Notes: a model not told the origin generated them from the letters alone. Shown: positions 9,161 through 62,354, numbered from the stretch's first letter. The stretch: 64,000 nucleotides of DNA from Clostridia bacterium (GCA_036654095.1 JAVVSR010000001.1:239165-303164); one strand, 5' to 3'. Program-made: numbers and translations.

Positions 9161-11485
9161 TTATTTATTCTCGTCGTCATCGGTAAACTTTAGGTCAAAA
9201 CCCTTTAGCAAATCAGCCAAAGTAGCGACACCTGAATCAGATACCCACTCGTGTGGCTCGTCGCTCTTGTTCCTATCGTCGGAACGGTCGCGTCTGCGGT
9301 CATCAGACTTAGTGGGGTCATACTCGAATTTTTTAGTACGAGGAGGACGCGGCGCTTTGGGTTTATTTTCGTTTTCCGAATTATTGTTGTTTGTAACCTT
9401 ATTGTTGTTGTTATTATTTGAAACATTTTGATTAGCAACTGGTTTAGCTTCAACTTCAGGCACGGGCAACAATTCTTTAATACTTAAAGTTATACGATTG
9501 CCTTCAAAACCGATAATTTTTGCAGTAACCTCATCGCCTTCTTTCAAAAGTTCAGATGCTTCTTTAACAAATTTATGAGAAATTTGTGAAACGTGAATTA
9601 AACCGTCAATACCTTCTTCAATTTGGACAAACGCGCCAAACGGATGAATACGAGCAACAGTGCCGGTAATAATTGTACCAACGGGATATTTTTCGGCAGC
9701 AACTTCATAAGGTTTCTTTTGAAGTTGTTTATAGCCAAGTGAAATTTTCCCACTTTCGCGGTCAGCTTTTAACACAACGAAGTCATAAGTTTCACCAATA
9801 GTCAATACGGTAGAAGGGTCGGTAATTTTTTTCCACGATAAATCCGAAACGTGCGCCAAGCAATCATATCCTTTAACGCTAACAAATGCGCCAAATGAAG
9901 CAAAACGCTTAACTTTGCCCTTAACGATTGCGTTAGGAACGATACTAGCCCAAAATTCTTCATCTTTGCTAGCTTTTTCTTCTTCAAGAATAACACGTTG
10001 AGAAGCAGTTACGCGGCGACCATTTTTTTGAAGCATACGCAAACGAAGTTTTTTCTCAAGATAATCCTCAAGATTTTTAACTCGACCAGCGCGAATTTGT
10101 GAACCGGGAATAAATACGGTAAATGCGCCTAATCTGCCTTCAAGACCAACTGGATTGCCTTCTTTGTTTTTAACTATTTTTAGAGGAGGTTCAAGTGTAA
10201 ACTCTTTACTTTCGAATGCTTTTTCAGCAACTTCATCATCTTTCTTAACGAGGTCAATTTCGCGTTTAGAAAGCGTAACATATGTTGAGTCGCCTTTTTT
10301 ATTTATAATTTTGGCTTCAACAATATCGCCGACTTTGAAATCCGCAGGGTTGTAAGGGGTGTCAATATTAACTTCAGATTTGTCAATAAAGCCGTCCTTT
10401 TTGCCACCGATTTCGCAAAAGATACCACTGTCATCAGCGTTGATGATTTTAGCTTTTACGCGTTTACCTTCACGGTATGTAGTAAAGCCAGCGGACTTGT
10501 CGGATGCGATAATGTCATCCATAGTAAGTTCCTTAATGTGTTTGTGTTGAACCTCTGCCTCAGGTAGAACAACGGTAGGCTCCGCAACGGTAGCTGCGGT
10601 AGCAATCTCAACAACTTCATTTTCGGTTGTCTCGAGATTTGTGTTTTGAGTGTCACTCATATAACTTAAAACCTCCTCAATCAACTCTTGCGGAGTCGAT
10701 GCTGCGGCCATAACGGCCAATGTATTAAAATTAATATTAAATAAAGCTGACTTGACATCGGCTAAATTTTCAATAAGAAAAGTATTTCGGCAATTTTTTG
10801 ATGAAATATCAAACAACTTGTTTGCGTTTGAGCTAGTTTTACTGCCAACAACAAAAACGACATCATTTATCTTTGATAATTCAAATGCTTCCGCTTGTCT
10901 TGCCTTTGTAGTATAGCAAATTGTATTAAAAAAAACAACTATTTTATTATAACATATACTACTTATTTGTATATTTTTTACTATATCTTCATATTTTTCC
11001 TCAGAAAATGTGGTTTGCGATACAACGCAATACTTATCCGCTGAACTAAGGTCAATTTTATCGCAGTTACTTATGACTTCCGCGTTGCCATTTGTAAATC
11101 CCAAAACCCCTTGAACCTCGGGGTGGCTCTCCTCGCCGATTATTATAATTTTATAACCTTTTGTAGAATACTCTGAAACAATATCGTGAACTTTTTTAAC
11201 CAACGGACAAGTCGCATCAAAAACTATTGCGCCTCTTTCCAAAAGTTGATTTTTTATGACAGGAGAAACTCCGTGCGCGCGTATTAATACTTTTTCACCC
11301 TTAGAAATAAAACAAGGATTATCAATAGGTTTAATGCCTTCGGCAATTAAATCATTAACAACCCTTTCATTGTGAATTAAAGCGCCTAAAGTATAAATTC
11401 CTCCAACGGAATTAATCCTCGCAATCTCAATAGCATTTTGTACGCCAAAGCAAAATCCAATATTTTTTGCAACGGTTATTTTCAA
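9161..11485 (-). CDS. ispH: Fusion protein: 4-hydroxy-3-methylbut-2-enyl diphosphate reductase (IspH/LytB) plus ribosomal protein S1-like repeats
   Basis: The N-terminal ~280 aa are IspH-like (NIGFCFGV, HNERV, CPLV, SSN). Four S1/OB repeats follow (GxxVxGxV ... G..G.IH.S patterns). The C-terminus is an N-rich then R/D/K-rich tail. Confidence 0.9.
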   Translation of the reverse strand: MKITVAKNIGFCFGVQNAIEIARINSVGGIYTLGALIHNERVVNDLIAEGIKPIDNPCFISKGEKVLIRAHGVSPVIKNQLLERGAIVFDATCPLVKKVHDIVSEYSTKGYKIIIIGEESHPEVQGVLGFTNGNAEVISNCDKIDLSSADKYCVVSQTTFSEEKYEDIVKNIQISSICYNKIVVFFNTICYTTKARQAEAFELSKINDVVFVVGSKTSSNANKLFDISSKNCRNTFLIENLADVKSALFNINFNTLAVMAAASTPQELIEEVLSYMSDTQNTNLETTENEVVEIATAATVAEPTVVLPEAEVQHKHIKELTMDDIIASDKSAGFTTYREGKRVKAKIINADDSGIFCEIGGKKDGFIDKSEVNIDTPYNPADFKVGDIVEAKIINKKGDSTYVTLSKREIDLVKKDDEVAEKAFESKEFTLEPPLKIVKNKEGNPVGLEGRLGAFTVFIPGSQIRAGRVKNLEDYLEKKLRLRMLQKNGRRVTASQRVILEEEKASKDEEFWASIVPNAIVKGKVKRFASFGAFVSVKGYDCLAHVSDLSWKKITDPSTVLTIGETYDFVVLKADRESGKISLGYKQLQKKPYEVAAEKYPVGTIITGTVARIHPFGAFVQIEEGIDGLIHVSQISHKFVKEASELLKEGDEVTAKIIGFEGNRITLSIKELLPVPEVEAKPVANQNVSNNNNNNKVTNNNNSENENKPKAPRPPRTKKFEYDPTKSDDRRRDRSDDRNKSDEPHEWVSDSGVATLADLLKGFDLKFTDDDENK

Positions 11486-14494: not shown

Positions 14495-15895
14495 TTAAAC
14501 TGGATGTATGTTTTGCGCTTTATCACTTAAAACATTATCAACATCGTGTTTTTTTGCTGCGCGATATTCAAAATATTTTGTCGCAACCTGTGGGAATAGC
14601 GCGTATGACAAAACATCTTCTTCTTGTTCGTAATACTTTTTAACTTCTTCCTTATATTTTTCATATTCAGGAGGAATTAAGTCAGCAGGACGACAAGTTA
14701 TGCGCTCGGTATCGCCTAATACTTTTTTGTAGATATCCATATTAGGTTCAGCTGGCAATGTGCCATATTCGCCGCGTAGCAAGCCTTTTGTTTCCTTGGT
14801 ACACATTTTATAGCGTTCGCCCGAAACAACGTTTAAAACAGCTTGTGTGCCCACTATTTGACTTGTTGGCGTAACTAATGGCGGAAAACCTAAGTCAGCC
14901 CTAACGCGTGGCACTTCAGCCAAAACTTCTAAATATTTATCACTTGCATTTTGTTCCTTAAGTTGGTTAATTAAATTTGAAAGCATACCGCCGGGAACTT
15001 GATAAATAAGCGCGTTTACATCGACAGCTAAAACCTTTTCATTCAGGAAACCATCGGCTTTTAAACGGTCGGCAACTTTTCTAAAATGAACAGCAATTTT
15101 GCTTAACAAGTTTAAGTCAATCCCCGTATCGTATTCAGTGCCACGAAGCGTTGCAACCATAGGTTCGGTTGCGGGTTGGCTTGTGCCGTTTCCCAAAGGA
15201 GAAAGCGCGGTATCAACAATATCGGCTCCGCCCTCAATCCCCTTAAGAATTGTCATATCTCCAGTACCTGAAGTATTATGCGTATGTAAATGCAGCGGTA
15301 AATTGACCTTCTTTTTTATAGCCTTAACTAGTTCATACGCGTTGTATGGCAACAATAGATTTGCCATATCCTTAATACAAATAATATCCGCGCCCATATC
15401 GGCAAGTTTAACAGCTAAGTCAACAAAATATTCATTAGTATGAACGGGGCTTGTTGTATAGCTCATTGCGCATTCGCAAATACCTTTATACTTTTTTGTA
15501 CTGTCAATGGCTTGCTTTAGATTTTTAACGTCGTTAAGCGCGTCAAAAATACGAACAATGTCAATACCGTTTTTGATGCTCATCTTAACAAATTGGTCAA
15601 CTACGTCATCGGCATAATGCTTATATCCTAAAATATTTTGACCTCTAAACAGCATTTGCAATTTAGTATTTGGAATAGCTTTACGCAAAGCGCGCAATCT
15701 TTCCCACGGGTCTTCATTTAAAAATCTTAAGCAGCTGTCAAAAGTAGCGCCTCCCCAACACTCAAGCGAATAGTAACCTACTTGGTCAAGCAAGGAAGCG
15801 ACGGGTAGCATTTCATCAAGACGCATGCGCGTAGCGGCCTGCGATTGATGCGCGTCCCTAAGAATAGTTTCAGTAATTAAAACTTTGCGTGCCAT
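14495..15895 (-). CDS. Oxaloacetate decarboxylase alpha-type carboxyltransferase (5S / pyruvate carboxylase subunit B-like), without a biotinyl domain
   Basis: HMGL-like TIM barrel N-terminus ITETILRDAHQS, metal ligands HLHTHNTSG, and a conserved C-terminal PYC_OADA region. The protein ends without an AMKM biotin domain. Confidence 0.85.
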   Translation of the reverse strand: MARKVLITETILRDAHQSQAATRMRLDEMLPVASLLDQVGYYSLECWGGATFDSCLRFLNEDPWERLRALRKAIPNTKLQMLFRGQNILGYKHYADDVVDQFVKMSIKNGIDIVRIFDALNDVKNLKQAIDSTKKYKGICECAMSYTTSPVHTNEYFVDLAVKLADMGADIICIKDMANLLLPYNAYELVKAIKKKVNLPLHLHTHNTSGTGDMTILKGIEGGADIVDTALSPLGNGTSQPATEPMVATLRGTEYDTGIDLNLLSKIAVHFRKVADRLKADGFLNEKVLAVDVNALIYQVPGGMLSNLINQLKEQNASDKYLEVLAEVPRVRADLGFPPLVTPTSQIVGTQAVLNVVSGERYKMCTKETKGLLRGEYGTLPAEPNMDIYKKVLGDTERITCRPADLIPPEYEKYKEEVKKYYEQEEDVLSYALFPQVATKYFEYRAAKKHDVDNVLSDKAQNIHPV

Positions 15896-15914
15896 AATAA
15901 ATTATCTCCTTTAA

Positions 15915-17120
15915 TTACAATATTGCAAGCAGCACACCGGCAGCGACAGCGCTTCCGATAACACCTGCAACGTTAGGCCCCATCGCGTGCATCAACAAGT
16001 AATTGTCGGGGTCATATTGACGACCAACGTCCTGTGCGACGCGGGCTGCCATAGGAACAGCAGAAACACCTGCCGCGCCGATAAGTGGATTGATTTTCCC
16101 ACCAGAAAGTTTGTTCATAAGTTTGCCTAGTAACACGCCACCTGCTGTGCCAAGCGAAAAAGCAAATACACCTAAGAAAAGAATACCTAAAGTTTTCCAA
16201 GTAAGGAAAACAGGCGCGTACGCTTTGCTACCAACGCAAAGGCCAAGGAAGATTGTAATAATGTTAATTAATTCGTTGCTGGCAGTTTTAGTTAAGCGAG
16301 GGACAACGCCCGACTCTTTCATAATATTGCCTAGCATCAACATACCGATAAGCGGCAATGCTGTTGGCAAAACGATACCAATTACAGCGGTTACGACTAT
16401 TGGAAACATTATTTTTTCTTTTTTAGAAACAGGACGAAGTTGCTCCATTTTAATTAATCGTTCTTTCTTTGTAGTTAGAAGCTTCATTATAGGAGGTTGA
16501 ATTACGGGAACGAGAGCCATATAACTGTATGCCGCAATAGATATTGCCGACAGCAAATCTGGAGCAAGTTTAACAGTAACGTAAATTGCCGTAGGGCCGT
16601 CCGCGCCTCCGATAATGCCAATAGCGCCAGCTTCTTGCGGAGTAAAGCCTAAAAGCAATGCGCCAATAAAGGTTATAAAAATACCAATTTGTGCCGCCGC
16701 GCCTAAAAGCATACTTTTCGGGTTGGCAATTAATGGACCAAAGTCGGTCATTGCGCCAATGCCCAAGAAAATCAATGGCGGAAATATAACTAAGTCAACG
16801 CCCTTGTATAAAAAATATAATAAACCGCCCTTCGCTCCAGTTTCGAGGTTAGGCGCTTCAAATAGAACTTCGTGCGCGCCGGGAATGTTAATTAAAAACA
16901 TACCAAACGCAATGCCTAACAGCAACATCGGTTCGTATTGTTTGACGACTGCCAAATAAACTAAAAAGCAGGCTATTCCCAACATCAGCACTAAGCCCCA
17001 AACTCCAAATATGTAGTTTGCAGGAGTATCTACCATCGGACGGGCAAAACCAGTACTTTCCCAAAGGTTTTTAAGCCATTCAAGTAGGTTACCGCCTTTT
17101 GATAAGGTTGTAATAAACAT
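15915..17120 (-). CDS. Na+-translocating decarboxylase beta subunit (OadB/MmdB/GcdB family)
   Basis: Polytopic membrane protein with family-typical segments [11 protein letters not shown] and [13 protein letters not shown]. Confidence 0.9.
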
Positions 17121-17131
17121 AGTTTTACCCC

Positions 17132-17509
17132 CTATGCGATAACTGCAAGCACATCACCACTTTCTACGTTTGCGCCCTTAGCGACAAGCTGAGTAATAAC
17201 ACCATCAGCAGGTGAACCAATTTCGTGTTCCATTTTCATCGCCTCAATAACGAGGATATTTTGACCCTTTTTAACGGTAGCGCCATTTGGAACTTTAAAT
17301 TCAACAATCATACCGGGTAATGGAGATTTAAATTCAACGCCTGCTGGAGTGGCTTTTTTAGGAGCGGCAACAGGAGCGGGGGAAACCACGGGCGCAGATA
17401 CTTTTGCAGCAGGGGCAACAACAGCCATTGGCTCAGTCGCGCCACCCAAAACTTCTTCAACTTCGACCTCGTAGGCTTGGCCGTTTACTTTAATTTTAAA
17501 ATTACGCAT
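17132..17509 (-). CDS. Biotin carboxyl carrier protein (decarboxylase gamma subunit)
   Basis: Ala/Pro-rich linker followed by a biotinyl domain with the attachment motif EAMKMEHEI. Confidence 0.85.
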
Positions 17510-17511
17510 AA

Positions 17512-17898
17512 CTATATCCTCCTAGAGTTAAACTTTTTTATACTTCTGACAACAAACTTTGCGTCGGAGTTGCCCTCGACCGTACTTTCACTTAATACAA
17601 TACTTAGCGCGCCCATAATGGCAGCTATATCGGCATTGTTTGAAACGCTTTCATTTGCCGATGACACAACACTTTCATCTAATGATAAGTCGGGCGCTAA
17701 AATTTCGGCGGCGGCTTTTTTAGCGGCAGCTTTTTTTACGTCGTGTTTACTTATCAACTCAAGCAGTTTCATAAGGTAAATTAAGGCGGTAAGCAAAATA
17801 AAAACCATCACAATACCAATGGCTGTCACTTGTAAACCAAACAACAACTTATCACCTAGGGATTTACCAACTTCGGTTGCGGCTAAAATATTAATCAT
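17512..17898 (-). CDS. OadG/MmdD-like small membrane subunit of the decarboxylase
   Basis: Single N-terminal TM helix followed by an Ala/Lys-rich linker. Its position between the carboxyltransferase and BCCP matches mmdA-D-C-B operons. Confidence 0.6.
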   Translation of the reverse strand: MINILAATEVGKSLGDKLLFGLQVTAIGIVMVFILLTALIYLMKLLELISKHDVKKAAAKKAAAEILAPDLSLDESVVSSANESVSNNADIAAIMGALSIVLSESTVEGNSDAKFVVRSIKKFNSRRI

Positions 17899-17907
17899 AT
17901 TTCACCT

Positions 17908-19308
17908 CTAACCTTCAAGCATAGCTAGTATGCTTGCAAGATATGGCCTAACTTGCGATGGCTCAATAATATTATCAATAAAGCCGTCTTTTGCCGCAAT
18001 AAACGGATTTCCTTCGCGCTCGGTATAGCTTGAAACAAGTTTCTCGCGCGACTGAATAGGATTTTTAGATGCGCCAATTTCATCGAGATACAAAAAGTTT
18101 ACAGCAGTGTCTGCCGTCAATGGAGCAACCGATGCTCCAGGGAAAGCTACAACATAGTCAAACCCAATACCTTTGCTAGCAAGTAATGCGTAAGATAAGC
18201 CAATAGCGCTTCCATATATAACCGAAATTTTGGGTATTTGACTTAAAGCAATAGATAAAAATGCTTCAGACGCATTTGTAGTAACGCCATCTTGCTCACA
18301 TTTTAAACAAGGTTTTGCACCTAAACTATCAACCAATGAAACAAGCGGAATTTGAAAATTATCTAACAAATTTGTAAACGTTTTAATTTTTTTATAAGCC
18401 TTAAATCCAAGTTTCCCACCGTCAAGACTTCCGTCGGTTGCAACAATACCAACGCTTATGCCGTTAATCCTTGCAAGCGCAGTAACAACCTCTTTAGCTG
18501 ACTCATTGTTCAATGAAATATAATCGCCATTGTCGCAAGTAGCTTTCAATAAACTTTCAAGCGAAACTTCGTTATTTAAAGTTTTTGTCGCGCGGTTTGC
18601 GTCATCTTCTGACGGAAGATTGCCCGACAATATACCAAAAATTTCACATAATTTTGTTTTTAGGTCAGAAATCCCACTGTAAGCCAATGTAGACACGCCA
18701 TTTCTGCACGAATTTAACGCGCCAAACAAGTCTTTAGTTGGTAATTTTTCATCTGATTTAGCAGCCACAACATTTGGAGAGCTTAAACTAATCATACCAT
18801 CTTTACCGTCAATAAGCACTATATCGGCAAGGCCGGCATATGCGCTCATAAGCCCTACTGACGAGCCTTTGATAACAGCGATGTGAGGTATATTTCCCTT
18901 CATTTCCGATGCAGCTTTGATAAGTTTTGCATATCCCTCAAGAACACCGACGCCTTCGCCTAAGCGCGCGCCAGCGCTGTCAATGACCGATATAAACGGC
19001 GTACCCGTTTTAATAGCCATTTTAATGCATTTCTCAATTTTGTTGGCCTGAGCAATACTCATACTGCCCTTCATAACCTCAAAATTTTGAACAAAAATAT
19101 AGACAGGCATATCCGCTAACGTCGCGTAACCTGTCAACACTCCTTCCCCCTGCGCCTCTGTTCCGTCCAAAAAGCCTAGTCCTGCGGCAAAAGCATCGGT
19201 TTCAACAAAAGATTTTTTGTCAACAATACCCTCGATGAAAGCTCGAACGCTTTTCGTGGCTTCGGTCAGCTTCGCCGAGTTATCCTTTAGCCTTGAAATA
19301 ATGTCCAT
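17908..19308 (-). CDS. Acyl-CoA carboxyltransferase (MmdA/GcdA-like alpha subunit), divergent
   Basis: Two-domain carboxyltransferase with DSAGARLGEGVGVLEGY in the N-domain. The C-domain oxyanion region is diverged (YGSAIGLSY). The start was set at MDIISRL (ATG 19306-19308), which has an aggagg SD upstream. Confidence 0.75.
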   Translation of the reverse strand: MDIISRLKDNSAKLTEATKSVRAFIEGIVDKKSFVETDAFAAGLGFLDGTEAQGEGVLTGYATLADMPVYIFVQNFEVMKGSMSIAQANKIEKCIKMAIKTGTPFISVIDSAGARLGEGVGVLEGYAKLIKAASEMKGNIPHIAVIKGSSVGLMSAYAGLADIVLIDGKDGMISLSSPNVVAAKSDEKLPTKDLFGALNSCRNGVSTLAYSGISDLKTKLCEIFGILSGNLPSEDDANRATKTLNNEVSLESLLKATCDNGDYISLNNESAKEVVTALARINGISVGIVATDGSLDGGKLGFKAYKKIKTFTNLLDNFQIPLVSLVDSLGAKPCLKCEQDGVTTNASEAFLSIALSQIPKISVIYGSAIGLSYALLASKGIGFDYVVAFPGASVAPLTADTAVNFLYLDEIGASKNPIQSREKLVSSYTEREGNPFIAAKDGFIDNIIEPSQVRPYLASILAMLEG

Positions 19309-19421
19309 TAAGACCTCCTTTAACTTGTTTCGGTACATAAATTATATAATAGAACTTAGGGTTTTGCAACTTAATATACAAACTTAGTGGTTTGTTAAAT
19401 TATAGACTATTTTAAATAAAT

Positions 19422-28422: not shown

Positions 28423-28782
28423 TTACATGATATTATTTGACAGTTCGCCCGCGCGACATTTAAGCGACATCAATGCAGTTAATATAAACTGCTTATTTGA
28501 TGGTTTTCCTTTTTTCATATCAATAGTTTCACCAAATTCATCGTAAAGCGCCTGAACGTCGCCCTTTAGCCAAGCCGTTGAAATGGCATTTTGCACATCT
28601 TTTTCAATAGCAGAAATCGATTTGTTATATTTTTTTGAAAGCTCAACATATCCAACGTACTTTAAGGGTAAAATTTCAATATCATAAAGCGCGCTTTTAA
28701 TAATATCAAAAAGATATCGGTATCCTAGTTTATTAGGTACAAATCCTAACCTTAATAAATATTCCGTTATTAGTTTTTCCAT
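28423..28782 (-). CDS. Stand-alone Spo0A C-terminal (DNA-binding) domain protein with no receiver domain
   Basis: The 119-aa ORF aligns without gaps to the B. subtilis Spo0A C-domain (recalled from memory). LGYRYLFDII matches KGYLYLREAI; SAIEKDVQNAISTAW matches SRVERAIRHAIEVAW; KGKPSNKQFILTALMSL matches KAKPTNSEFIAMVADKL. A ggagga SD precedes the ATG. The gene sits in the canonical slot downstream of spoIVB. Confidence 0.8.
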   Translation of the reverse strand: MEKLITEYLLRLGFVPNKLGYRYLFDIIKSALYDIEILPLKYVGYVELSKKYNKSISAIEKDVQNAISTAWLKGDVQALYDEFGETIDMKKGKPSNKQFILTALMSLKCRAGELSNNIM

Positions 28783-33315: not shown

Positions 33316-33514
33316 AATTTACCTCTTTTTAATACTCTATAAAACCATTATAGCCTTAAAAAAGCATAATGTCCATAGTTTATTTGCATAACTTGACATA
33401 AGATTAGATATTTTTATACAATAAGTGAATATTTAAATGAATTTAAAGCAACAAATAAAACTATTATAGTAAAATTTAAAAATTTAAAAAAAAATTATTG
33501 AAAAAAAAATTCAA

Positions 33515-35197
33515 TTACTTAGCGAAAAAATTTAATGCTTTAGATAGAATATTATTAAAATTAAAGCCAAATTCATCATAAGCCTCATCAGAGGTCATAT
33601 TTGGAATAAGGACATTATCAAAAGTAAATGACATAATATTGTTGGCGCAATAACCTTTTTTATTGTAGTATTCAAAAATCGAACTCGACAAACCGCCCGC
33701 TAAAATATTGTCTTCAAATATAAAAATCTTTTTATCTTTAAGAACATCAAGCATTTCTTCATCAATCGGATTAACAAAGCGCGCATTGACAGTACTTAAA
33801 TTTAAGCCATTATTCATAGCACTTTCTTTAAGTTTTACAGCTAAATTGGCCATTTTAGAGCCAGTATATATAATTATGCCTTGTTCGCCATTTTCAACAA
33901 AATATTCCCACTTGCCTAGACTAATTGGCGATACTTTCAAAAAATTATCCTCGCCGCCTTTGCAATAACGCAAAGCAATAGGCTTGTTTACAGTAAGTGT
34001 CCACTTCAACATCGCTTCAAGCTCATCACCATTTTTCGGCGATGCAATTATCATATTTGCCGTTCTTAAAAAACTTAAATTAATTAAACCTTGATGTGTT
34101 TCTCCATCGTCAGAAACGATACCACTATGGTCAACACATAGCGTAACCGAAAGATTTTGCACCATAATATCGTGTATAATTTGGTCAAAACCACGTTGTA
34201 AAAATGTACTGTACACTGCAAAATATGGTTTTAACCCCTCTTTAGCCAATGCCGCGCACATTGTAACAGCATGCCCTTCAGCTATACCTGTATCAAAAAA
34301 CCTATCAGGATATTTATTTGCAAAGCTGCCTAAACCAGTGCCGTCGGCCATAGCTGCCGTGACTGCAACTACACGTTTATCTGCGCCCGCCATTTCAACA
34401 AGGGTATCACCCATACGTTTTGAAAAGCTGTCGCCACATTTTGCGCCGACTGAATGAAATTTATCAGGACACTCCTCTGCTTTATTATAGCCCTTACCTT
34501 TTTCAGTAATAACATGGACAACTACGCTTTTTTTTGACTGTTTTGCGCACTCTAATGCGTCAATTAAAGATACAAAGTCGTGTCCGTTGATTTGTCCAAT
34601 ATAATCGAAACCTAATGAATTAAAAAAACATTTAGCCGAGTTCTCGCATTTCAAAATTTTTGTTACTCCGCCAACTGTCGCAGAAATTGTCATATTATTG
34701 TCATTTAACACTATAATTTGTTTTGCATCGATACTTGCGCTATCGTTAAGAGCTTCGAAACACATGCCGTTGCTTAACGAACCATCGCCAACCAATGAAA
34801 CTATTTCGTAATTTTCATTTTTAAGTTTCCGAGCGCGCATCAAGCCACACGCAATAGACAACGCAGTGCTACTGTGTCCTGTATTAAAATAATCGTATTT
34901 ACTTTCAGATGATTTTGGAAATCCGCTTAATCCATCTTTTTTACGAATTGACGAAAAATTATCGCGAGTTAAAATTTTATGAGTATAGCACTGATGACCA
35001 ACATCAAACAGCAACTTATCCTTCGGAAAATCAAAAACGTAATGCAATGCGATTGTTAATTCAACAACTCCAAGGTTTGAAGCAAGATGCCCGCCATTGA
35101 CGGGTATAACCTCTAATATGGTTTTTCTAACATTTTGGGCAAGTATATTTAACTCATCGATACTGAGTATTTTTAAATTAGTTCTTTTTTCGGCCAC
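33515..35197 (-). CDS. dxs: 1-deoxy-D-xylulose-5-phosphate synthase (compact, 560 aa)
   Basis: GGHLASNLGVVELTIALH, DVGHQCY, GDGSLSNGM (ThDP motif) and DVGIAEGHAV-like (DTGIAEGHAV). The protein lacks about 50 aa of the usual flexible linker. Confidence 0.92.
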   Translation of the reverse strand: MAEKRTNLKILSIDELNILAQNVRKTILEVIPVNGGHLASNLGVVELTIALHYVFDFPKDKLLFDVGHQCYTHKILTRDNFSSIRKKDGLSGFPKSSESKYDYFNTGHSSTALSIACGLMRARKLKNENYEIVSLVGDGSLSNGMCFEALNDSASIDAKQIIVLNDNNMTISATVGGVTKILKCENSAKCFFNSLGFDYIGQINGHDFVSLIDALECAKQSKKSVVVHVITEKGKGYNKAEECPDKFHSVGAKCGDSFSKRMGDTLVEMAGADKRVVAVTAAMADGTGLGSFANKYPDRFFDTGIAEGHAVTMCAALAKEGLKPYFAVYSTFLQRGFDQIIHDIMVQNLSVTLCVDHSGIVSDDGETHQGLINLSFLRTANMIIASPKNGDELEAMLKWTLTVNKPIALRYCKGGEDNFLKVSPISLGKWEYFVENGEQGIIIYTGSKMANLAVKLKESAMNNGLNLSTVNARFVNPIDEEMLDVLKDKKIFIFEDNILAGGLSSSIFEYYNKKGYCANNIMSFTFDNVLIPNMTSDEAYDEFGFNFNNILSKALNFFAK

Positions 35198-35873
35198 GCT
35201 TCTTATTCTCCTTTGTGAACACTGAAATTACGCGCGCTGTTAGCATAACAAATTCTTTCGACTTATTGATTGCATAGTTTTTTAAAAATGCTTTTCCGCC
35301 TACAATCAATGCCGACACCACTGCGCTAACGCAAATAGTTACAAGTTGAACAATTTGATTTTCAGCATTTATTACTATTTTTGAAACAATAACGACCGTA
35401 CACGCGCCCGATAGAATACCAAAAATATCGCCTATTACGTCGTTACAAATATTTGCAACGACTTCGGCATTTTTAACAAGCCGTATAGCCGTTTTACTGC
35501 CATGCACCTTTTTACTTGCCATCGCAGTTAAAGGCGCAAGTTCACAACTAGCAACGGCAACGCCAATGCCGTCAAACAAAATACTTCCTGAAATTAAAAA
35601 CAACAACAGTAAAATAGTAACAATAATGTTACCCGCCGTTGAAGTCATTTGCGCTATAAAACTAAAAAAAGCTGACAAAAAAAATGTGATTACAGTCGCC
35701 TTAATCGCCCAGTGCGATTTTAGCCCGCTTTTTTTTGGTTTATCAACTTTATCATTTTTACTTTTTATACTTTTGACAGTTACTTCAGACGCATTGCCAT
35801 TTGCCACAGATATCGGAACTTCATCTGTAAGATTATGGCTAAATTCGCCGTCTTGATTGTCGCTTTTATTCAT
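35178..35873 (-). CDS. oapA: Small polytopic membrane protein, inferred OLE-associated protein A
   Basis: A hydrophilic ~70-aa N-terminus is followed by ~4 TM helices. It lies immediately downstream of the structured RNA and upstream of, and overlapping, dxs, which is the defining OapA context. The start was set at MNKSDNQ (ATG 35871-35873, gagga SD), because the longer ORF start at 35930 lies inside the RNA element. Confidence 0.6.
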   Translation of the reverse strand: MNKSDNQDGEFSHNLTDEVPISVANGNASEVTVKSIKSKNDKVDKPKKSGLKSHWAIKATVITFFLSAFFSFIAQMTSTAGNIIVTILLLLFLISGSILFDGIGVAVASCELAPLTAMASKKVHGSKTAIRLVKNAEVVANICNDVIGDIFGILSGACTVVIVSKIVINAENQIVQLVTICVSAVVSALIVGGKAFLKNYAINKSKEFVMLTARVISVFTKENKKRGRKKN

Positions 35874-35885
35874 ATAGTCCTCAAT

Positions 35886-36477
35886 AAAAAAAAATAATGG
35901 TGGTAATAACTTGAGTAAACCTTGCGCCATTAGGTCCAGTAGAGTTTCTCTTTACGAAAACTTTTCGTCGCCGAAAAAGGAGTTTCCTATTAAATCGTAA
36001 ACCACGGAGTTGCCAACCGCGAGACTAGATTGCCACTTAGAGCACACTATAATCCCCAAATTATTTCCAATGGAACAGCCTAGAAGATTTCCTTGACAGA
36101 CCTAGAGCACACTTAGTTTCTTTTGCAAAGTAAGTTTCATTAGGCAATCGGCATAGCATATTGGCCAACATACAAAGCCGTGTTCCTAAATTCACATACT
36201 CCACTCAAAACAGGCTACACTGCACACAGCGATTAACCGCATTACAGGTTTACCCTAACCAGTAGAAGATTTGACATCTACCGAATTAAGCCTCCACGAT
36301 AATTGGGTCGTTGTTTGCATGCCATTGCAAATCGCCCAAAAATCTTAACTCCCAGCAGCAGCCCTTGTTTGGGCAACAAAAGCCACCACCAGAAACTTCA
36401 TCGATATGCCCTTTAACAGTATTTTAACCCTGTCTTGGGTGTGGCCGGCCTGACTAGAATACTGCACCACCATTTTC
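35886..36477 (-). ncRNA. ole: Large structured ncRNA, inferred OLE (ornate, large, extremophilic) RNA
   Basis: ORF-free segment with much higher G+C than its flanks and a consensus promoter directly upstream. A 9-bp terminal closing helix pairs 36466-36474 with 35896-35904, followed by a U9 run. There are many internal hairpins. The context ispA-RNA-membrane protein-dxs is that of OLE. Confidence 0.75.
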
Positions 36478-36483
36478 AATAAT

Positions 36484-36512
36484 ATTATAGCATAACTTTT
36501 TAAAAAATTCAA
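36484..36512 (-). promoter_or_regulatory. Sigma-A type promoter driving the OLE-like RNA
   Basis: On the minus strand: TTGAAT (36507-36512), a 17-nt spacer, then TATAAT (36484-36489). The predicted start is near 36477. Confidence 0.7.
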
Positions 36513-36736
36513 ATGATTTTATAATTATTGCCTAAATATATAATAATAATATATACAATATACAGCAAAAAAGTTACTTAATTATAAAATTTATTTATAT
36601 ATAAATAACAATATTGAAAATTTCAATCATATATAACAAACAAATTTAGTGTAGTTTTTTTTAAAAATACCGATTTTTATGTTAAAAAACTAATTAATTC
36701 ATTAAATATTGTATTTAATCAAAAATGAAATATAAC

Positions 36737-37561
36737 CTAACAACATTTAATTGTTGACAAAAGTTCAATCAATGGTTCATTGTTTTGCAGTGGCTTAATT
36801 GCCAAAAGAGCGTTATCAATATTTTGTTTTAAATCCCTTTTCGCAATTTCAAGCCCAAAAACATTTGCATAGTTGTATTGTAACAGCTTAGCGTCTTTGC
36901 CATCTAATACATCTGAAATATCGTCGGCAATTTGAAATGCTTGACCAAAATAATCACCAAATGACTTAAGGATAGCAATGGTATCATTATCGGCATTGGC
37001 CAAAACAGCGCCTGCCTCGAGAGAACCTGTAAATAACTTCCCTGTTTTATATTTATTTACAACATCTAAGTCAAATTCATTAAGGTTCTTAAGGTTTAAG
37101 TCAAGATATTGTCCATAAATCATACCACCGATACCTGCGCAACTTGCAATAATTTTCATGGCTTTAATTTTAAATTCGGTATTGGCATTTTCAAGCATAT
37201 ATTCATAAGCGCCATTAAGCAACGCGTCGCCAGTAAGTAACGCCTGCCACTCTCCGAATTTTTTATGAACCGTTGGAATTCCCCGTCTTAAATCGTCGTT
37301 ATCCATACAAGGCATATCATCGTGTACTAGCGAATAATTGTGAATAAGTTCAATTCCAACAGCAAAAGGTAAAGCTTCATCGAAATTTCCGCCAACAACA
37401 TTGTTTGCAATTAGCAGCATAATCGGACGCAACCGTTTGCCTCCGTCCAATGCGTAAAAAATCGCCTTTCCTATGTCGCCAAAAAAACTTTGCCTTAGCG
37501 CCCAATCGGCAACAGCAATATCAACTTCTCTTTTTAAAAACGAAAGATTATTAATCGACAA
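36737..37561 (-). CDS. ispA: Farnesyl/geranyl diphosphate synthase (polyprenyl synthetase)
   Basis: First DDxxD motif in LVHDDMPCMDNDDLRRG and second DDxxD in FQIADDISD. Confidence 0.88.
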   Translation of the reverse strand: MSINNLSFLKREVDIAVADWALRQSFFGDIGKAIFYALDGGKRLRPIMLLIANNVVGGNFDEALPFAVGIELIHNYSLVHDDMPCMDNDDLRRGIPTVHKKFGEWQALLTGDALLNGAYEYMLENANTEFKIKAMKIIASCAGIGGMIYGQYLDLNLKNLNEFDLDVVNKYKTGKLFTGSLEAGAVLANADNDTIAILKSFGDYFGQAFQIADDISDVLDGKDAKLLQYNYANVFGLEIAKRDLKQNIDNALLAIKPLQNNEPLIELLSTIKCC

Positions 37562-40076: not shown

Positions 40077-40487
40077 TTAGATAGTACCATTTATTTCCTT
40101 GTTTATGCTTGAAAGTGTTCCATTTACAAATGATTTGCTTTTTTCACTGCTATATCGCTCGGCAATTTCAATCGCTTCACTTATAGCCACGGGCGCAGGC
40201 ACTTCAGGCATATATTTCAGCTCATAGGCGCACAAAATCATAACAGCTAAATCGGGTTTATAAACACGCTCAATGGTATAACCTTCAACATATTTTTCAA
40301 CCAACGATTTAAGTTCGTCAAAATGCAAAATAATGCCATCGTAAACATTGGTAATGTAAATTTTATCCTCGTTAGTCAACGCGCTGTCGGAAAGCAACAC
40401 ATCTAAAGTAGTATCATTTTTAGTATTATAAAATAAAAATTCAAAAGTCAGCCTGTACACATTTTCACGCGCGGTGCGTCTGCTCAT
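40077..40487 (-). CDS. nusB: Transcription antitermination factor NusB
   Basis: N-terminus SRRTARE, C-terminal INEAIE-like AISEAIEIAERY, FVNG.L. Size is 136 aa. Confidence 0.9.
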   Translation of the reverse strand: MSRRTARENVYRLTFEFLFYNTKNDTTLDVLLSDSALTNEDKIYITNVYDGIILHFDELKSLVEKYVEGYTIERVYKPDLAVMILCAYELKYMPEVPAPVAISEAIEIAERYSSEKSKSFVNGTLSSINKEINGTI

Positions 40488-53752: not shown

Positions 53753-54107
53753 CTTTGCTAATTTCCTTTTCGCTGATTTCCTTTAACAGTTTATCAATTT
53801 TCATTCCATACTCAATGCTGTCATCAATATAAAAAGCCAATTCAGGAATATTTCGAATGTTCATAAGTACTTTCAACTCATTGCGGAAAAAACCAGATGC
53901 GTTGTTTATAACCTTTAAAGCCTCAACCTTATTTTCGATATTAAGCATACTAATGTAAACTTTGCTAAATTTCAAATCCGATGTAGTTGTGACCTTTGTA
54001 ACACTTATCATCCCACCTTGCAAACGTGGGTCATTAAGTTTTTGGTTAATAATACCTGCGAGTTGTTTTTCTATTTCCGAATCAATGCGGTTAATTTTAC
54101 TAATCAT
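53745..54107 (-). CDS. rbfA: Ribosome-binding factor A
   Basis: RIDSEIEKQLAGIINQKLNDPRL...VT.V..T.DL..AKVY pattern. The start was set at MISKINR (ATG 54105-54107), overlapping the end of infB. Confidence 0.9.
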   Translation of the reverse strand: MISKINRIDSEIEKQLAGIINQKLNDPRLQGGMISVTKVTTTSDLKFSKVYISMLNIENKVEALKVINNASGFFRNELKVLMNIRNIPELAFYIDDSIEYGMKIDKLLKEISEKEISKDD

Positions 54108-57033
54108 TAATTTGCTCCATAGTAAAGGCTTCGATAACGTCGCCCTCTTTAATATCATTGTAGTTAGTTATGCCCATACCACATTCATAGCCTTTTGCGA
54201 CTTCTTTGACGTCGTCTTTAAAACGCTTTAAGCTATTGAGTTCGCCTTCAAAAATAAACGTGTTGTCGCGATAAAGCCTAATTTTTGCAGTACGGATAAT
54301 TTTGCCGTCAGTAACGTATGCCCCTGCGATTGAACCAACGCCAGTAATTTTGTATACTTGACGAATTTCGGCATTACCAAGCGAAACTTCCTTAAATTTA
54401 GGAGCAAGCATACCCTTAATTGCCTTTTCGACATCGTCAATGGCGTCATAAATAATGCGATACAAACGAATATCAATATTATCTCGTTCGGCGTTAGCTT
54501 TAGCGTTGACATCTGCGCGGACGTTAAATCCAATAATAATTGACCCTGACGTGTTTGCGAGCATTACATCTGACTCGTTAATTGCGCCGACAGCGCCGTG
54601 GATAACAACAATTTTGACTTCATCATTTGAAAGTTTAACAATAGATTGCTTAACAGCCTCAACGCTACCTTGAACGTCTGCTTTAATAATAATATTAAGC
54701 GACTTCGTTACGCCCTTTTGAATTTGAGCAAATATATCTTCAAGCGATGCGGTAGGTTTAGCAATATTCATATCAATACGTATTTTTTGTTGACGTTCGG
54801 TAGCGACTTGTTTTGCAAGTTTTTCATCTTGAACAACCATAATTGGGTCACCTGCGTTAGGTACTTCCGAAAATCCTAAAACAGAAACAGGTATTGAAGG
54901 CCCTGCAACTTTTGTAGCGCGACCTTTGTCATCAATCATTGCGCGAATTTTACCAACACAAATGCCTGCAACTACAAAGTCGCCAACGTGCAACGTGCCA
55001 TTTTGAACAAGCACCGTAGCAAGAGGGCCTTTGCCTTTATCAAGCCTAGCTTCAATAATTGAGCCACGAGCTTGACGGTCGGCATTTGCCTTTAAGTCAA
55101 GTATTTCGGCAACAAGTAAAATAGTTTCAAGCAATTTATTAACATTTTCGCCCGTTTTTGCGGAAACATAAACGACAGGAGTTTCTCCACCCCATTCTTC
55201 GGGTACGATTCCATATTCGGTAAGTTTTTGTAAAACTTTTTCGGGTTGCGCGGCGGGCTTATCAATTTTATTTACAGCAATAATTATTGAAACGCCTGCT
55301 TGTTTTGCGTGGTTAATAGCTTCAATAGTTTGAGGCATAACACCATCGTCGGCAGCAACAACAATAATAGCAATATCGGTAACTTGCGCGCCTCTCATAC
55401 GCATTGCAGTGAAAGCCTCGTGGCCGGGAGTATCTAAAAATGTAATAGGCTTATTATTAAGCGAAACGGTATATGCGCCAATGTGCTGCGTAATACCTCC
55501 TGCTTCGCCTTGCGTAACGTTTGTTTTTCGTATGCAATCTAATAGCGATGTCTTGCCATGGTCGACGTGCCCCATAATAGTAACAACGGGAGGACGCGTA
55601 CAATAGTTATCCCCGTCATCAATATCGCTAACTTTTTCAATATCGTCCAAAATATCTTCGGCTGTTTTTTCGGGTTCGTATGTTAGCTTAACGCCAAATT
55701 CGCCAGCTACCAAATCAGCAGTATCAAAGTCAATAACGTCATTGATTGTCTTCAAGATACCTAAAAGCATTAACTGTTTTAAAATTTCGCCACCTGTTTT
55801 ACCTATTTTCTCACTAAGTAGTTTAATCGGAATAATACCCGCTGTGACAACTGCGTTTTCAATTTTAGTTGAAGTAGGTTGTATAAATTCGTTCTTTTTT
55901 GGGCGACGTTTAAGATGACGGCTTGTTTCGCTTCCATCTTCATCAATAATAATAGGGTCGGTTACGATAAAGCCTTTACGGATAAGCGCGCGTTTATTTT
56001 GCGACTTTCTATCTTCCATCTGCTGTTGAGCGGGAGATTTTTTTATACCTGTTTTATTTGCAAAGTTTTTAGTAGGTTGAGGAATAATTGGAGCAGCGGC
56101 AGTAAAACCAAATTTTCCGCCACTACTTTGTTGTGGACGAGATTGACCGCCTTGATAGCCTGCGCCTTGCGGACGAGGATTATTTCCTTGATAGCCTGCG
56201 CCTTGCGGACGTGGGTTATTTCCTTGATAGCCTGCCCCTTGCGGACGAGGATTATTTCCTTGATAGCCTGCGCCTTGCGGACGTGGATTATTCCCTTGAT
56301 AACCTGCGCCTTGTGGACGAGGATTATTTCCTTGATAACCTGCGCCTTGCGGACGAGGATTATTCCCTTGATAGCCTGCGCCTTGCGGACGTGGGTTATT
56401 TCCTTGATAGCCCGCGCCTTGCGGACGTGGGTTATTCCCTTGATAGCCTGCGCCTTGCGGACGTGGATTATTATTCTGATAGCCACCCTGTTGCGGAGGA
56501 CGGGGTTGATTACCTTGATAATCTGCGCCTTGTGGACGTGGCTGACCGTCACGCGGAGGACGGTTTTCTTTTTTCGGTGTATTATCAAAAATGCGTGTTT
56601 GAATGTTTTCTTGAGGAGTTTTGTCAGCAACTTCAACAATTTCTTTCGCTACAACAACGGTTTCTTCCTTTTTTGGAGTAGCGACAACCTCGGGCGCAAC
56701 AACAGTAGCAGTCGCGATTGGTTTTTCAATGACGACTTCAACCTTTTTCGGCTCGGGAATAGGCTCAACCTTAACTTCCTTAATCGGTTCAATTACTTTT
56801 ACATTAACTTGCGCCGCTTCAACTGCCTGCTTTTGTTCAGCAAGCGCTCTAGCCTGTTCAAGTATAGCCAGTTTTTCCGACTTGATGTCAAGCAGAGATT
56901 GAGTTAAACCGCTAAGTTTTGATTTTACCTCCTTGGCTTGTTCAATTACAGGTGCAATACGCTTCGCCTTAAACTCCGAAAGCGCCTTGATACCGCCAAG
57001 CTCAGATTGGTTATTGTTTGTTTTTTCTGACAT
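54100..57033 (-). CDS. infB: Translation initiation factor IF-2 with an expanded repeat-rich N-terminal region
   Basis: G domain [23 protein letters not shown] and NKID, plus conserved domains II to C2. The N-terminal region contains a 12-aa tandem repeat. Confidence 0.97.
56152..56475 (-). repeat. Nine tandem 36-nt in-frame repeats inside infB encoding (G/N)[11 protein letters not shown]
   Basis: Period-36 units were read directly from the sequence. The peptide units are identical, while the DNA units differ only at synonymous positions. Degenerate copies extend the array to 56116-56547. Confidence 0.95.
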
Positions 57034-57052: not shown

Positions 57053-57358
57053 TCACGCGTTGTTGTTTTCAATAATAGCTTTAGCAAGGTTTTCGTCTGT
57101 TATGGCGATAACCTTACAATTTTGTTTTTTCAATATATCTTCTATGGTACAACCCGAAAGAACAATTAAAGGAGAGTTTGTTTTTTCGGCATAAGATTTA
57201 ATTTGTTTAGCGGTATTTTCACCCGCCGTGCTACATAAGATAATCAATCGATGACGTTTACACCTTTTGGTAATGGAATCTGCGCCAAAAACTACTTTTC
57301 TAGCGCGAGCCGCAAAGCCAATATAACTAACAATTTTCGACGTACTTTGTGTATTCAT
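57053..57358 (-). CDS. ylxQ: L7Ae-family RNA-binding protein YlxQ
   Basis: 101 aa with the pattern GFAARARKVVFG...I.. It lies between ylxR and infB, as in Bacillus. Confidence 0.8.
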   Translation of the reverse strand: MNTQSTSKIVSYIGFAARARKVVFGADSITKRCKRHRLIILCSTAGENTAKQIKSYAEKTNSPLIVLSGCTIEDILKKQNCKVIAITDENLAKAIIENNNA

Positions 57359-61324: not shown

Positions 61325-62354
61325 TAGTAGCCTCATTTATCATCGCTTCAAATTCCGCCATTATTTTGTCATTTTCAATTACTTTAATTTTTTTACCATT
61401 TTTAAACAAAATCGAATGACCAACGCCACCCGCTACACCAAAATCGGCATCGCCAGCTTCGCCAATTCCATTAACAACACAGCCCATAACAGCGATTTTA
61501 AGCGGCAAATCTAAACTAGCTGTCAATTTTTCAACTTTATTTGCAAGTTCCGCCACGGGGATATTTGTCCTAGCGCACGTGGGACACGCTATAACCTCAA
61601 CACCTTTTTTCAAACCTAAACTAGTAAGCAAAATTTTGCCTGCAATAACCTCTTTAGTAGGCTCGTCCGCAAGCGAAACTCTTATCGTGTTGCCAATACC
61701 GTTTAAAAGCAGCGCGCCAATTCCAACGGAATTTTTAATAATACCACGTTCAAAAGTACCAGCCTCCGTAACTCCGATATGCAATGGATAATCGGAAACT
61801 TCGCTAAACAGTTTATTGGCATTTACCATATTTTTAATGTTTGACGACTTTATGGACACGATAGTATTATAAAAATTAGCTTTTTCAAGAATAGTTATAT
61901 GTTTAAGCGCGCTTTTCACCAAAGCGTCCACGCGAGGTAAATGATTAAATTCACTTTCTAGAGAGCCTTCATTAACACCGATACGTATCGGGATTTCCCT
62001 TTCGCGAAGAAAGTCTGCAACATATTTAACTTTTTGTTCGCCACCGATATTACCCGGATTTATCCTAATTTTACTTGCGCCGTTTTCAGCCGAAAGTATT
62101 GCAAGCTTATAGTCAAAATGGATATCTGCAACAAGCGGAATATGTATGCCTTTCACAATTTCATTTAAAGCAAGCCCTGCGCGCTCGTTATTAACCGAAA
62201 CGCGTACAATGTCACAACCAACGGACTCAAGTTCCAAAATTTGTTTTATGGTTGCAGAAACATCCTCGGTCAACGTATTGCACATCGACTGAACAGTAAT
62301 TGGCGAATTTCCGCCAATAGCTATATTTTTAACTTTAATTTCTCTTGTTTTCAT
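61311..62354 (-). CDS. ispG: 4-hydroxy-3-methylbut-2-en-1-yl diphosphate synthase
   Basis: SPITVQSM, RVSVN, RINPGNIG, and Fe-S cysteines CPTCAR and MGCVVNG. Confidence 0.93.
   Translation of the reverse strand: MKTREIKVKNIAIGGNSPITVQSMCNTLTEDVSATIKQILELESVGCDIVRVSVNNERAGLALNEIVKGIHIPLVADIHFDYKLAILSAENGASKIRINPGNIGGEQKVKYVADFLREREIPIRIGVNEGSLESEFNHLPRVDALVKSALKHITILEKANFYNTIVSIKSSNIKNMVNANKLFSEVSDYPLHIGVTEAGTFERGIIKNSVGIGALLLNGIGNTIRVSLADEPTKEVIAGKILLTSLGLKKGVEVIACPTCARTNIPVAELANKVEKLTASLDLPLKIAVMGCVVNGIGEAGDADFGVAGGVGHSILFKNGKKIKVIENDKIMAEFEAMINEATNEKV

Follow-up and report, generated by a model that had tools for sequence, protein, structure and literature searches.

The 64,000-nucleotide (nt) stretch of Clostridia bacterium DNA analyzed here (GCA_036654095.1, JAVVSR010000001.1:239165-303164; hereafter the window) carries on its minus strand, between ispA and dxs, an ornate, large, extremophilic (OLE) RNA gene, ole, directly followed by oapA, the gene for its membrane protein partner. 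We put the probability that this interval is an OLE/oapA locus, with a functional ole and its partner oapA, at about 95%. A first-pass annotation made from the sequence alone had proposed such a locus, and this reading is now supported by a match to the Rfam family RF01071, by hallmarks of OapA in the downstream protein, by covariation and by gene order.

A full-length OLE RNA upstream of oapA

What identifies the RNA? The RF01071 covariance model, whose gathering score is 50 bits, matches the minus strand from 36486 to 35884 with 462.8 bits (E 1e-132) and does so over model positions 1-616 of 616, a full-length hit to the very family that had been named. By Rfam the gene (35884..36486, minus strand) measures 603 nt and is of the full-length type, an assignment to which conserved positions, covariation and the fold z-score contribute as well; the mature RNA likely extends from ~36477 to ~35886. 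At the highly conserved (upper-case) model positions, 220/249 (88.4%) are identical, and the window OLE shares all invariant columns of a 38-sequence alignment that comprises the window and 37 OLEs from related loci (given below by L numbers), with the Rfam structure projected onto it and the terminal helix of the first-pass annotation added. Folded as a single sequence, the RNA reaches -186.5 kcal/mol (z = -3.98 vs dinucleotide shuffles), and the closing helix P1 is recovered in the minimum free energy (MFE) fold. Since P7 (37 nt), P8 (28 nt), P9 (96 nt) and the GNRA loop and bulge of P13 are all present in the RF01071 alignment, the RNA belongs to the full-length type and not to the reduced variants; variants 1 and 2 are both ruled out by the retained P7-P9 and P13 loop.

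The element also stands out by its composition, with a G+C content of 42.6% vs 35.3% for the whole window and 12.9% for the 224-nt spacer upstream; the hand counts of the first-pass annotation, 28/60 at 36361-36420 and 6/60 at 36541-36600, are exact. Its description of an 806-nt gap (35931-36736) free of open reading frames (ORFs) needs a minor correction: the gap exists, but a mechanical 55-amino-acid (aa) ORF with a TTG start (36345-36512) lies inside OLE. At the other end, the oapA reading frame is open as far as 35930 and overlaps the OLE 3′ end.

Covariation in the consensus structure

Over 175 pairs in the 38 sequences, 85.3% of cells are canonically paired, as compared to 40-45% for partners displaced by 1-3 columns, and compensatory changes on both sides occur in 124/175 pairs. 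The covariation score of 0.471 (0.207 in shuffles) was reached by 0/500 shuffles. Related genomes hence back the structure, closing helix included. That helix, proposed earlier as 9 bp between AAUGGUGGU (36466-36474) and the complementary ACCACCAUU (35896-35904), is the family's P1. In the window, it spans 10 bp, nine of them Watson-Crick and one G-U, with AAUGGUGGUG as the 5′ strand (RNA 13-22; 36465..36474, minus strand; backed by covariation and the MFE fold) and UACCACCAUU as the 3′ strand (RNA 582-591; 35896..35905, minus strand; consensus structure and covariation). Both-side changes are seen in 8/10 pairs, and pairing of the 7-bp core is practically universal, be it as GGUGGUG/UACCACC, GCUGGCG/CGCCAGC, AGUGAUG/UAUCACU or AAAGGUUG/CAACCUUU. 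We count the extension G22-U582, which competes with the Rfam pair A422-U582, as part of P1; 35/38 sequences pair at G22-U582.

A second long-range helix encloses the 5′ domain (domain 1), with CAGU-AUU-CUAG (RNA 23-33; 36454..36464, minus strand; covariation) on its 5′ side and CUAGGCUG (RNA 404-411; 36076..36083, minus strand; consensus structure, covariation) on its 3′ side. Pairing of RNA 23-26 and 30-33 with 404-411 is 100% in the 38 sequences and survives two independent compensatory changes (CG to UA, AU to GC). Judged against the published OLE structure, this helix probably corresponds to P3, the stem for which membrane spanning has been proposed (PMC12265935).

Between the window and L009, 61 pairs have changed, of which 49/61 stay canonical, 36 of those by double change, and such mostly pairing-preserving substitution argues against a decaying copy. 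Among the local hairpins picked out earlier, those at 36262-36281 and 36305-36337 are the tips of P7 and P6, respectively, whereas the one at 35954-35968 does not belong to the consensus fold: it is a local alternative pairing only, whose halves sit in P14.1 and P14.

Loops and predicted protein-binding sites of the RNA

The known landmarks of OLE, all on the minus strand, can be followed along the molecule. The P4 hairpin (36415..36434), located by RF01071 and consensus landmarks (PMC12265935), carries the A-rich loop UUAAAAUA (36429-36419), which is a dimer contact in structures solved by cryo-electron microscopy (cryo-EM; PMC12265935). It is followed by the k-turn-forming J4a/5 strand AUCGAUGAAG (36396..36405), recognized from the 38-sequence alignment and from PMC9723947 and PMC12286853, where 8/10 positions are invariant and the other two at least 90% conserved; in Halalkalibacterium (Bacillus) halodurans, the k-turn formed by J4a/5 is bound by OapC (PMC9723947, PMC12286853). 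The long P5/P5.1 hairpin (36349..36395; helix 5, 96% paired) ends in the loop GCCCA (36374-36370) and the P6/P6.1 hairpin (36298..36344; helices 6-7), which contains the hairpin 36305-36337, in CAAUGGCAUG (36327-36318). P7 (36254..36290) falls slightly short of its length in the model consensus, contains the hairpin 36262-36281 and has 16/17 pairs compensatory. Next come P8 (36220..36247; RF01071, helix 9 in the covariation test) and the long P9 arm (36116..36211; RF01071, landmarks), whose palindromic loop UUGGCCAA (36168-36161) corresponds to the symmetric kissing loop of the OLE homodimer, a loop whose tetranucleotide covaries between palindromes (PMC12286853). By sequence, the homodimer loops of P4, P5.1, P6.1 and P9 are thereby all present.

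Domain 2, the P10-P15 region (35906..36074; helices 18-23, landmarks), holds the candidate OapB sites. By the determinants of PMC7936274, the primary site would be P13 (36002..36023), with a bulged U and the GNRA tetraloop GCAA (36013-36010), and the secondary one P14.1 (35959..35980), with the tetraloop GCGA (35971-35968). P13 reads U(bulge)-U-G-GCAA-C, the bulged U standing two nt before the GNRA loop, which is how the OapB site of B. halodurans, U498-U499-G500-GUGA, is arranged (PMC7936274). The k-turn strand, the P13 bulge and GNRA loop, and the P14.1 GNRA loop are all retained as candidate determinants for OapC and OapB.

A proximal promoter and a U-run after P1

Here, we show that a strong predicted promoter of the sigma-70 type lies immediately upstream of P1 (36484..36512, minus strand). 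It consists of a -35 element TTGAAT (36512-36507), a 17-nt spacer and an extended -10 element, TGcTATAAT, with its hexamer at 36489-36484; the TTGAAT-17-TATAAT of the first-pass annotation was thus found again, together with the TG, and matches the consensus at 10/12 positions. In a scan of the AT-rich region, promoter-like sites were not enriched (7 vs 7.6 in shuffles), and because this regional promoter and terminator scan did not rise above shuffles, we relied on a comparative test instead, counting matches of at least 10/12 to TTGACA-16/18-TATAAT. Such a promoter stands 6-21 nt upstream of P1 in 20/38 OLE sequences, the window included, vs 0.8±0.9 in shuffles, so that its support comes from a position shared among relatives rather than from a single match. 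Most Desulfotomaculum-type loci carry TGTTATAAT slightly further upstream of P1. The equivalent proximal promoter is active in B. halodurans, where it accounts for a >100-fold increase in OLE expression and the mapped 5′ ends fall at the beginning of P1 (PMC3413148). In the window, the predicted start is at ~36477/36476, 2-3 nt before P1.

Directly after the P1 3′ strand follows a run of nine U residues (35886..35894, minus strand), a putative OLE 3′ end or point of partial termination; the tail of the Rfam OLE consensus is U-rich as well. The terminator scan called no intrinsic terminator after ispA or after OLE. The oapA ribosome-binding site GAGGA (35878..35882, minus strand) is placed 4 nt before the ATG, oapA starts ~12 nt past the U-run, and the succession U9-GAGGA-ATG is repeated in the nearest relative, L003. 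As the promoter scan detected no promoter between the OLE U-run and oapA, oapA-dxs must be transcribed through OLE.

The membrane protein is OapA

The ~4-transmembrane (TM) protein that had been noted downstream, overlapping the dxs start, is encoded at 35178..35873 (minus strand) and was characterized by Pfam, hydropathy, AlphaFold, Foldseek and OLE adjacency. It has 231 aa and four hydrophobic helices, and its gene overlaps the dxs GTG by 20 nt. Published OapA proteins are recognized by four TM helices, a DxxxD motif, a CNNM-like domain that scores lower than true CNNM proteins and lacks their conserved proline, basic residues on the cytoplasmic face, a fold like that of CorB and their occurrence together with ole (PMC11332333, PMC12265935). 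OapA is further described as binding OLE RNA at a 2:1 ratio and bringing it to the membrane. In the window protein, hydropathy and AlphaFold place TM helices at residues ~54-79, 83-109, 136-169 and 173-203, and the DxxxD motif is D145-V-I-G-D149, inside VANICNDVIGDIFG, a segment with hardly any variation; NIC(N/C/A)DV(I/V)GD is kept in OLE-linked homologs of Desulfotomaculum, Desulfofundulus, Syntrophomonadaceae and RF39. Lysine and arginine cluster at 34-58, 121-134 and 194-230, that is, ahead of TM1, in the stretch linking TM2 to TM3 and in the basic C-terminal tail; by the positive-inside rule, these clusters would lie on the cytoplasmic face.

The AlphaFold model has a mean pLDDT (its per-residue confidence) of 77.7, with 85-94 over the membrane core, while residues 1-42 are disordered and lysine-rich. 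Against the PDB, the top six Foldseek matches are to MtCorB (7M1T/7M1U) and the CorC membrane domain (7CFF/7CFG), with probabilities of 0.99-1.00 over ~137 aligned columns and root-mean-square deviations of 3.6-5.5 Å; the next matches have probabilities of at most 0.3. 7M1U is also the published top structural match of H. halodurans OapA (PMC11332333, PMC12265935). Pfam returns only CNNM (PF01595), at 20.5 bits and under the cutoff of 28.4; the same search of the 231-aa protein found neither CBS nor CorC_HlyC domains, and the chain ends 30 residues past TM4. In the CNNM-like region, P114 is the only proline; it sits in the ELAPLTAMAS loop conserved among OapA proteins, and residues 115-231 have none, the CNNM-equivalent position having been judged by eye. 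Sequence searches of the PDB, with the protein or with a 49-sequence profile, returned no relatives, and in NCBIfam no model covers OapA. Database names of homologs include 'Mg2+ and Co2+ transporter CorB', 'DUF21' and 'CNNM'. The 'CorB' names are a misleading over-annotation, given the lack of CBS and CorC domains, of a solved structure detectable by sequence and of an NCBIfam model.

How tightly is this protein linked to OLE? A scan for its relatives, limited to one genome per species, yielded 77 homologous loci. Rfam, applied to 40 of them, found a full-length OLE on the same strand directly upstream in 37/40, plus a shortened one in L054; with a local nhmmer profile added, OLE stands directly upstream of the oapA homolog in 72/77 loci. 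DxxxD, four TM helices, a CNNM-like fold devoid of CBS and CorC domains, and this adjacency together bear out the identification of the protein as OapA.

Gene order and host

The cluster nusB...ispA-OLE-oapA-dxs...recN named in the first-pass annotation is found in the same order in the window, where gene calls and Pfam give, on the minus strand, nusB (40077-40487)-folD-xseA-xseB-ispA-OLE-oapA-dxs-nadK-argR-recN and then spoIVB. The two flanking genes belong to the conserved context: upstream, ispA (36737..37561, minus strand) encodes a polyprenyl synthetase, and downstream, dxs (33515..35197, minus strand) encodes 560 aa from a GTG start. The spacer from ispA to the ole promoter (36513-36736, 224 nt, 12.9% G+C) contains no called terminator and, as tandem repeats, only weak, low-complexity, AT-rich short ones (36535-36564). 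After the short dxs follows a gap of 199 nt (33316-33514). In many OLE loci, L023 included, tlyA/rrmJ precedes nadK; this gap occupies the corresponding position in the window.

Who is the host? An identical OapA sequence is present in the NCBI assemblies GCA_036650015.1 and GCA_036655295.1, and the closest loci come from metagenome-assembled genomes (MAGs) of uncultured Clostridia/Eubacteriales: CAG:917, CAG:1138, Ca. Limadaptatus and Christensenella-like genomes. The host accordingly belongs with the anaerobic or extremophilic Bacillota that carry OLE, being presumably anaerobic in view of the gut origin of its relatives. The window holds many sporulation genes (the spoIIIA operon, spoIVB and ytfJ), in line with reports that OLE correlates with sporulation (PMC11332333).

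Relatives with shortened or missing OLE RNAs

Some related loci depart from the full-length arrangement. OLEs of ~460 nt are found in L054 (2518-2981), L056 and L065, which are of the RF39/'Tenericutes' type (213 bits), and the distal part of P9 is absent in three Clostridia loci, L010 (2287-2854), L028 and L029. These shortened RNAs are consistent with the reduced OLE variants known from TANB77 and RF39 (PMC11332333).

In five of the 77 loci, no OLE stands directly upstream, although in two of these (L014, L075) the contig ends and truncates the locus. In L023 (2031-5286) and L024, both Christensenella-like MAGs, no OLE is detectable at the locus, where 43 nt separate ispA from the oapA-like gene; the order xseA-xseB-ispA-oapA-like-dxs-tlyA is retained. 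Their OapA-like protein keeps DxxxD (NICADVIGD) and has lost the conserved P-x-x-A-M-A-S-K-K-x-x-G loop between TM2 and TM3. In the literature, OLE and OapA are regarded as almost never found apart. Should OLE be truly absent from the L023 and L024 genomes, they would constitute natural evidence for RNA-independent OapA activity and mark the lost TM2-TM3 loop as the RNA-binding surface. An OapA-like gene outside the ispA/dxs context is found in L036 (1723-2241), where the upstream sequence at hand, 1.7 kb, contains no OLE.

MAGs labeled Bacteroidaceae, Armatimonadota and Deltaproteobacteria (L003, L044, L079) show the typical Bacillota-type OLE/oapA arrangement, and these out-of-phylum labels are probably binning or labeling errors. 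Fernando and Breaker reportedly discussed out-of-phylum OLE matches.

The N-terminal extension of OapA also varies among relatives. In the window (35723-35873, residues 1-50), it is disordered and lysine-rich, ~55 aa long and has pLDDT values below 50; the OapA open frame of L013 (2335-3543) is ~385 aa, while Desulfotomaculum-type OapA has 175-200 aa and no extension. Such an extension, ~55 aa here and >200 aa in some relatives, could give the RNA an additional tether or offer partners a docking arm. It seems doubtful, though conceivable, that the OLE particle of this branch of gut Clostridia has been remodeled and become partly dispensable, as the OapA extension, the truncated sister OLEs and the OLE-less L023 and L024 might suggest.

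A ribonucleoprotein model and alternative readings

What might this locus do? The ribonucleoprotein (RNP) model below is carried over from H. halodurans and clostridial OLE RNAs (PMC12265935, PMC12286853, PMC9723947, PMC7936274, PMC10898510). RNA polymerase would start 2-3 nt before P1 and produce an abundant, stable RNA of ~590 nt; part of transcription would pass the U-run into oapA-dxs, and upstream transcripts from nusB...ispA may add to it. The RNA would fold into two domains, with P1 and P3 as the long-range helices that connect them, and its dimer contacts would be the A-rich loops of P4, the loops of P5.1 and P6.1 and, in the loop of P9, the GGCC palindrome. OapA dimers, whose basic cytoplasmic face and DxxxD are kept here, would hold the RNA at the cytoplasmic membrane, and the particle would help the cell to cope with membrane and ion-balance stress, as imposed by short-chain alcohols, cold, excess Mg2+ or poor carbon sources; where studied, growth under stress from alcohol, cold, Mg2+ or the carbon source benefits from the OLE particle (PMC3413148, PMC10898510, PMC12265935). 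Tentatively, and at somewhat less than even odds, the RNA may be a structured scaffold or regulator of a CNNM-like OapA module, coupling the handling of Mg2+ and other ions at the membrane to cytoplasmic partners.

Several points weigh against a functional OLE/OapA pair that works in this way. At 29/249 conserved model positions the window differs, mostly by G-to-A or C-to-U changes, as is to be expected in an AT-rich genome, and the distal P13 is weak, with one G-C pair and a U.U mismatch. Within the 64-kb window, no oapB, oapC or rpsU was recognized, only a YlxQ-type L7Ae paralog. For this organism, we infer the transcript ends, the abundance and the membrane localization of the RNA, and the scaffold or regulator step is a hypothesis in which our confidence is modest.

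Could the same features be read differently? OLE might additionally act in cis, with P1 and the U-run forming a terminator-like giant leader or attenuator whose folding or protein-bound state sets read-through into oapA-dxs. The U9 run directly after P1, an oapA ribosome-binding site and ATG only 4-13 nt beyond it with no promoter detected in between, the same layout in the nearest relative and the U-rich tail of the Rfam consensus are all compatible with such a role, and the response of B. halodurans to ethanol, where OLE rises ~7-fold and oapA mRNA modestly (PMC3413148), fits partial termination. However, several relatives (e.g., L005-L008, L012) lack the U-run, P1 is a long-range helix and not the compact GC-rich hairpin of a terminator, the terminator scan gave no call, and the OLE literature cited here reports no function of this kind; we consider an attenuator unlikely. 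That the element is instead a decaying, non-functional remnant could be argued from its 29 deviating positions and weakened P13 tip, and from related gut lineages with reduced genomes that carry shortened OLEs (PMC11332333). Yet a remnant would be hard to reconcile with a full-length match at nine times the gathering score, with substitutions relative to other loci that are mostly compensatory, with intact dimerization loops, k-turn strand and both GNRA loops, or with an intact promoter and oapA, and this makes decay very improbable.

Similarly slim is the chance that the downstream gene encodes an ordinary Mg2+ transporter of the CorB/MpfA type beside which the RNA lies by coincidence. Homolog names (CorB/DUF21/CNNM), the weak Pfam CNNM match and the CorB/CorC-like fold all point in that direction, but the protein stops at 231 aa, after its membrane domain and without CBS or CorC_HlyC, stays with its CNNM score of 20.5 below the Pfam threshold of 28.4, and has the OapA-specific DxxxD in addition to the OLE adjacency in 72/77 homologous loci. 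As for the idea that the interval encodes a small protein rather than an RNA, the 55-aa ORF at 36345-36512 does exist mechanically. It begins with TTG, overlaps the promoter and is broken by stop codons in L003, L009, L004, L022, L019 and L005, on which grounds we reject it as coding and assign this reading a negligible probability. A functional OLE RNA with its partner OapA is the favored interpretation of the locus.

Other genes in the window

A gene for an L7Ae-family k-turn-binding protein (57053-57358, minus strand) lies in a rimP-nusA-ylxR-?-infB operon. Its product matches YlxQ (PDB 3V7Q, E 1e-6), with a Pfam L7Ae score of 19.9 vs the cutoff of 22.1, and both this match and the nusA-infB operon setting rule it out as OapC. 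YlxQ is the paralog of OapC/YbxF, and YlxQ proteins are reported to bind k-turns. In the adjacent infB (54100-57033), the N-terminal region of IF-2 (56100-56520, minus strand) contains ~10 tandem copies of a 12-residue unit.

The position after spoIVB is normally taken by spo0A. Here, the gene following spoIVB (28423-28782, minus strand) encodes the C-terminal DNA-binding domain of Spo0A only (119 aa; PF08769, E 2e-18); merely 161 nt separate it from spoIVB, leaving no room for a receiver domain, and public assemblies call the same 119-aa gene.

Four genes of the isoprenoid pathway fall within the 64 kb: dxs (33515-35197), ispA (36737-37561), an apparent ispH-S1 (rpsA-like) fusion and ispG, the latter two (9161-11485 and 61311-62354, both minus strand) having been read from translations without profile confirmation. 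Finally, a cluster at 14495-19338 (minus strand) resembles a Na+-translocating decarboxylase, with a carboxyltransferase, a beta membrane subunit, a biotin carrier (PF00364), an OAD gamma subunit (PF04277) and a carboxyl-transferase subunit, 2/5 of these genes having been checked against Pfam.

Comparison with known OLE systems

OLE is among the largest and best-conserved bacterial non-coding RNAs, and each correct copy feeds the comparative data behind its structural models. Recent cryo-EM work suggests that the RNA may span the membrane. The locus described here is a known RNA family in its known context; the host is new, the biology is not. It documents a full-length OLE/OapA pair in a lineage of uncultured gut Clostridia, and the interval should be annotated as ole and oapA. 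While it provides no new handle on OLE function, the OLE-less oapA loci are the part most worth the attention of specialists.

How does the window compare to characterized systems? Like the OLE RNAs of H. halodurans, Clostridium acetobutylicum and C. botulinum, the window RNA is ~600 nt long, has all consensus stems and is closed by P1. It shares with characterized full-length OLEs the conserved joining regions, the k-turn strand, the dimer loops and the GNRA loops of P13 and P14.1, and likewise an own promoter just upstream of P1, oapA directly downstream and the cluster nusB-folD-xseA-xseB-ispA...dxs...argR-recN. In contrast to characterized hosts, its host is an uncultured gut Clostridia lineage of low G+C content rather than an extremophile in culture. 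A-U or G-U has taken the place of many G-C pairs, P7 falls slightly short of the model consensus, the distal P13 is reduced to one G-C pair and a U.U mismatch, and tlyA/rrmJ is missing between dxs and nadK. With the reduced OLE variants, the window RNA has in common that their hosts are gut Bacillota known from metagenomes only and that the core nucleotides are conserved, but it keeps everything that was lost from variant 1 (short P7-P9, no OapB site in P13) and variant 2 (no P7 and P8).

The protein resembles published OapA in its four TM helices, its DxxxD within VANICNDVIGD, its basic clusters, its CNNM/DUF21 similarity, its CorB (7M1T/7M1U) match and its gene position after ole, and differs from Desulfotomaculum-type OapA by the disordered, lysine-rich N-extension of ~55 residues. 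MpfA, CorB and CorC have the fold of the membrane domain in common with OapA, which, unlike them, is devoid of the CBS pair and CorC_HlyC, has four TM helices as compared to three in CorB, and carries DxxxD. The Mg2+ sensitivity of OLE and OapA mutants resembles that of mpfA mutants, and across Bacillota the occurrence of OLE and MpfA is anticorrelated (PMC11332333).

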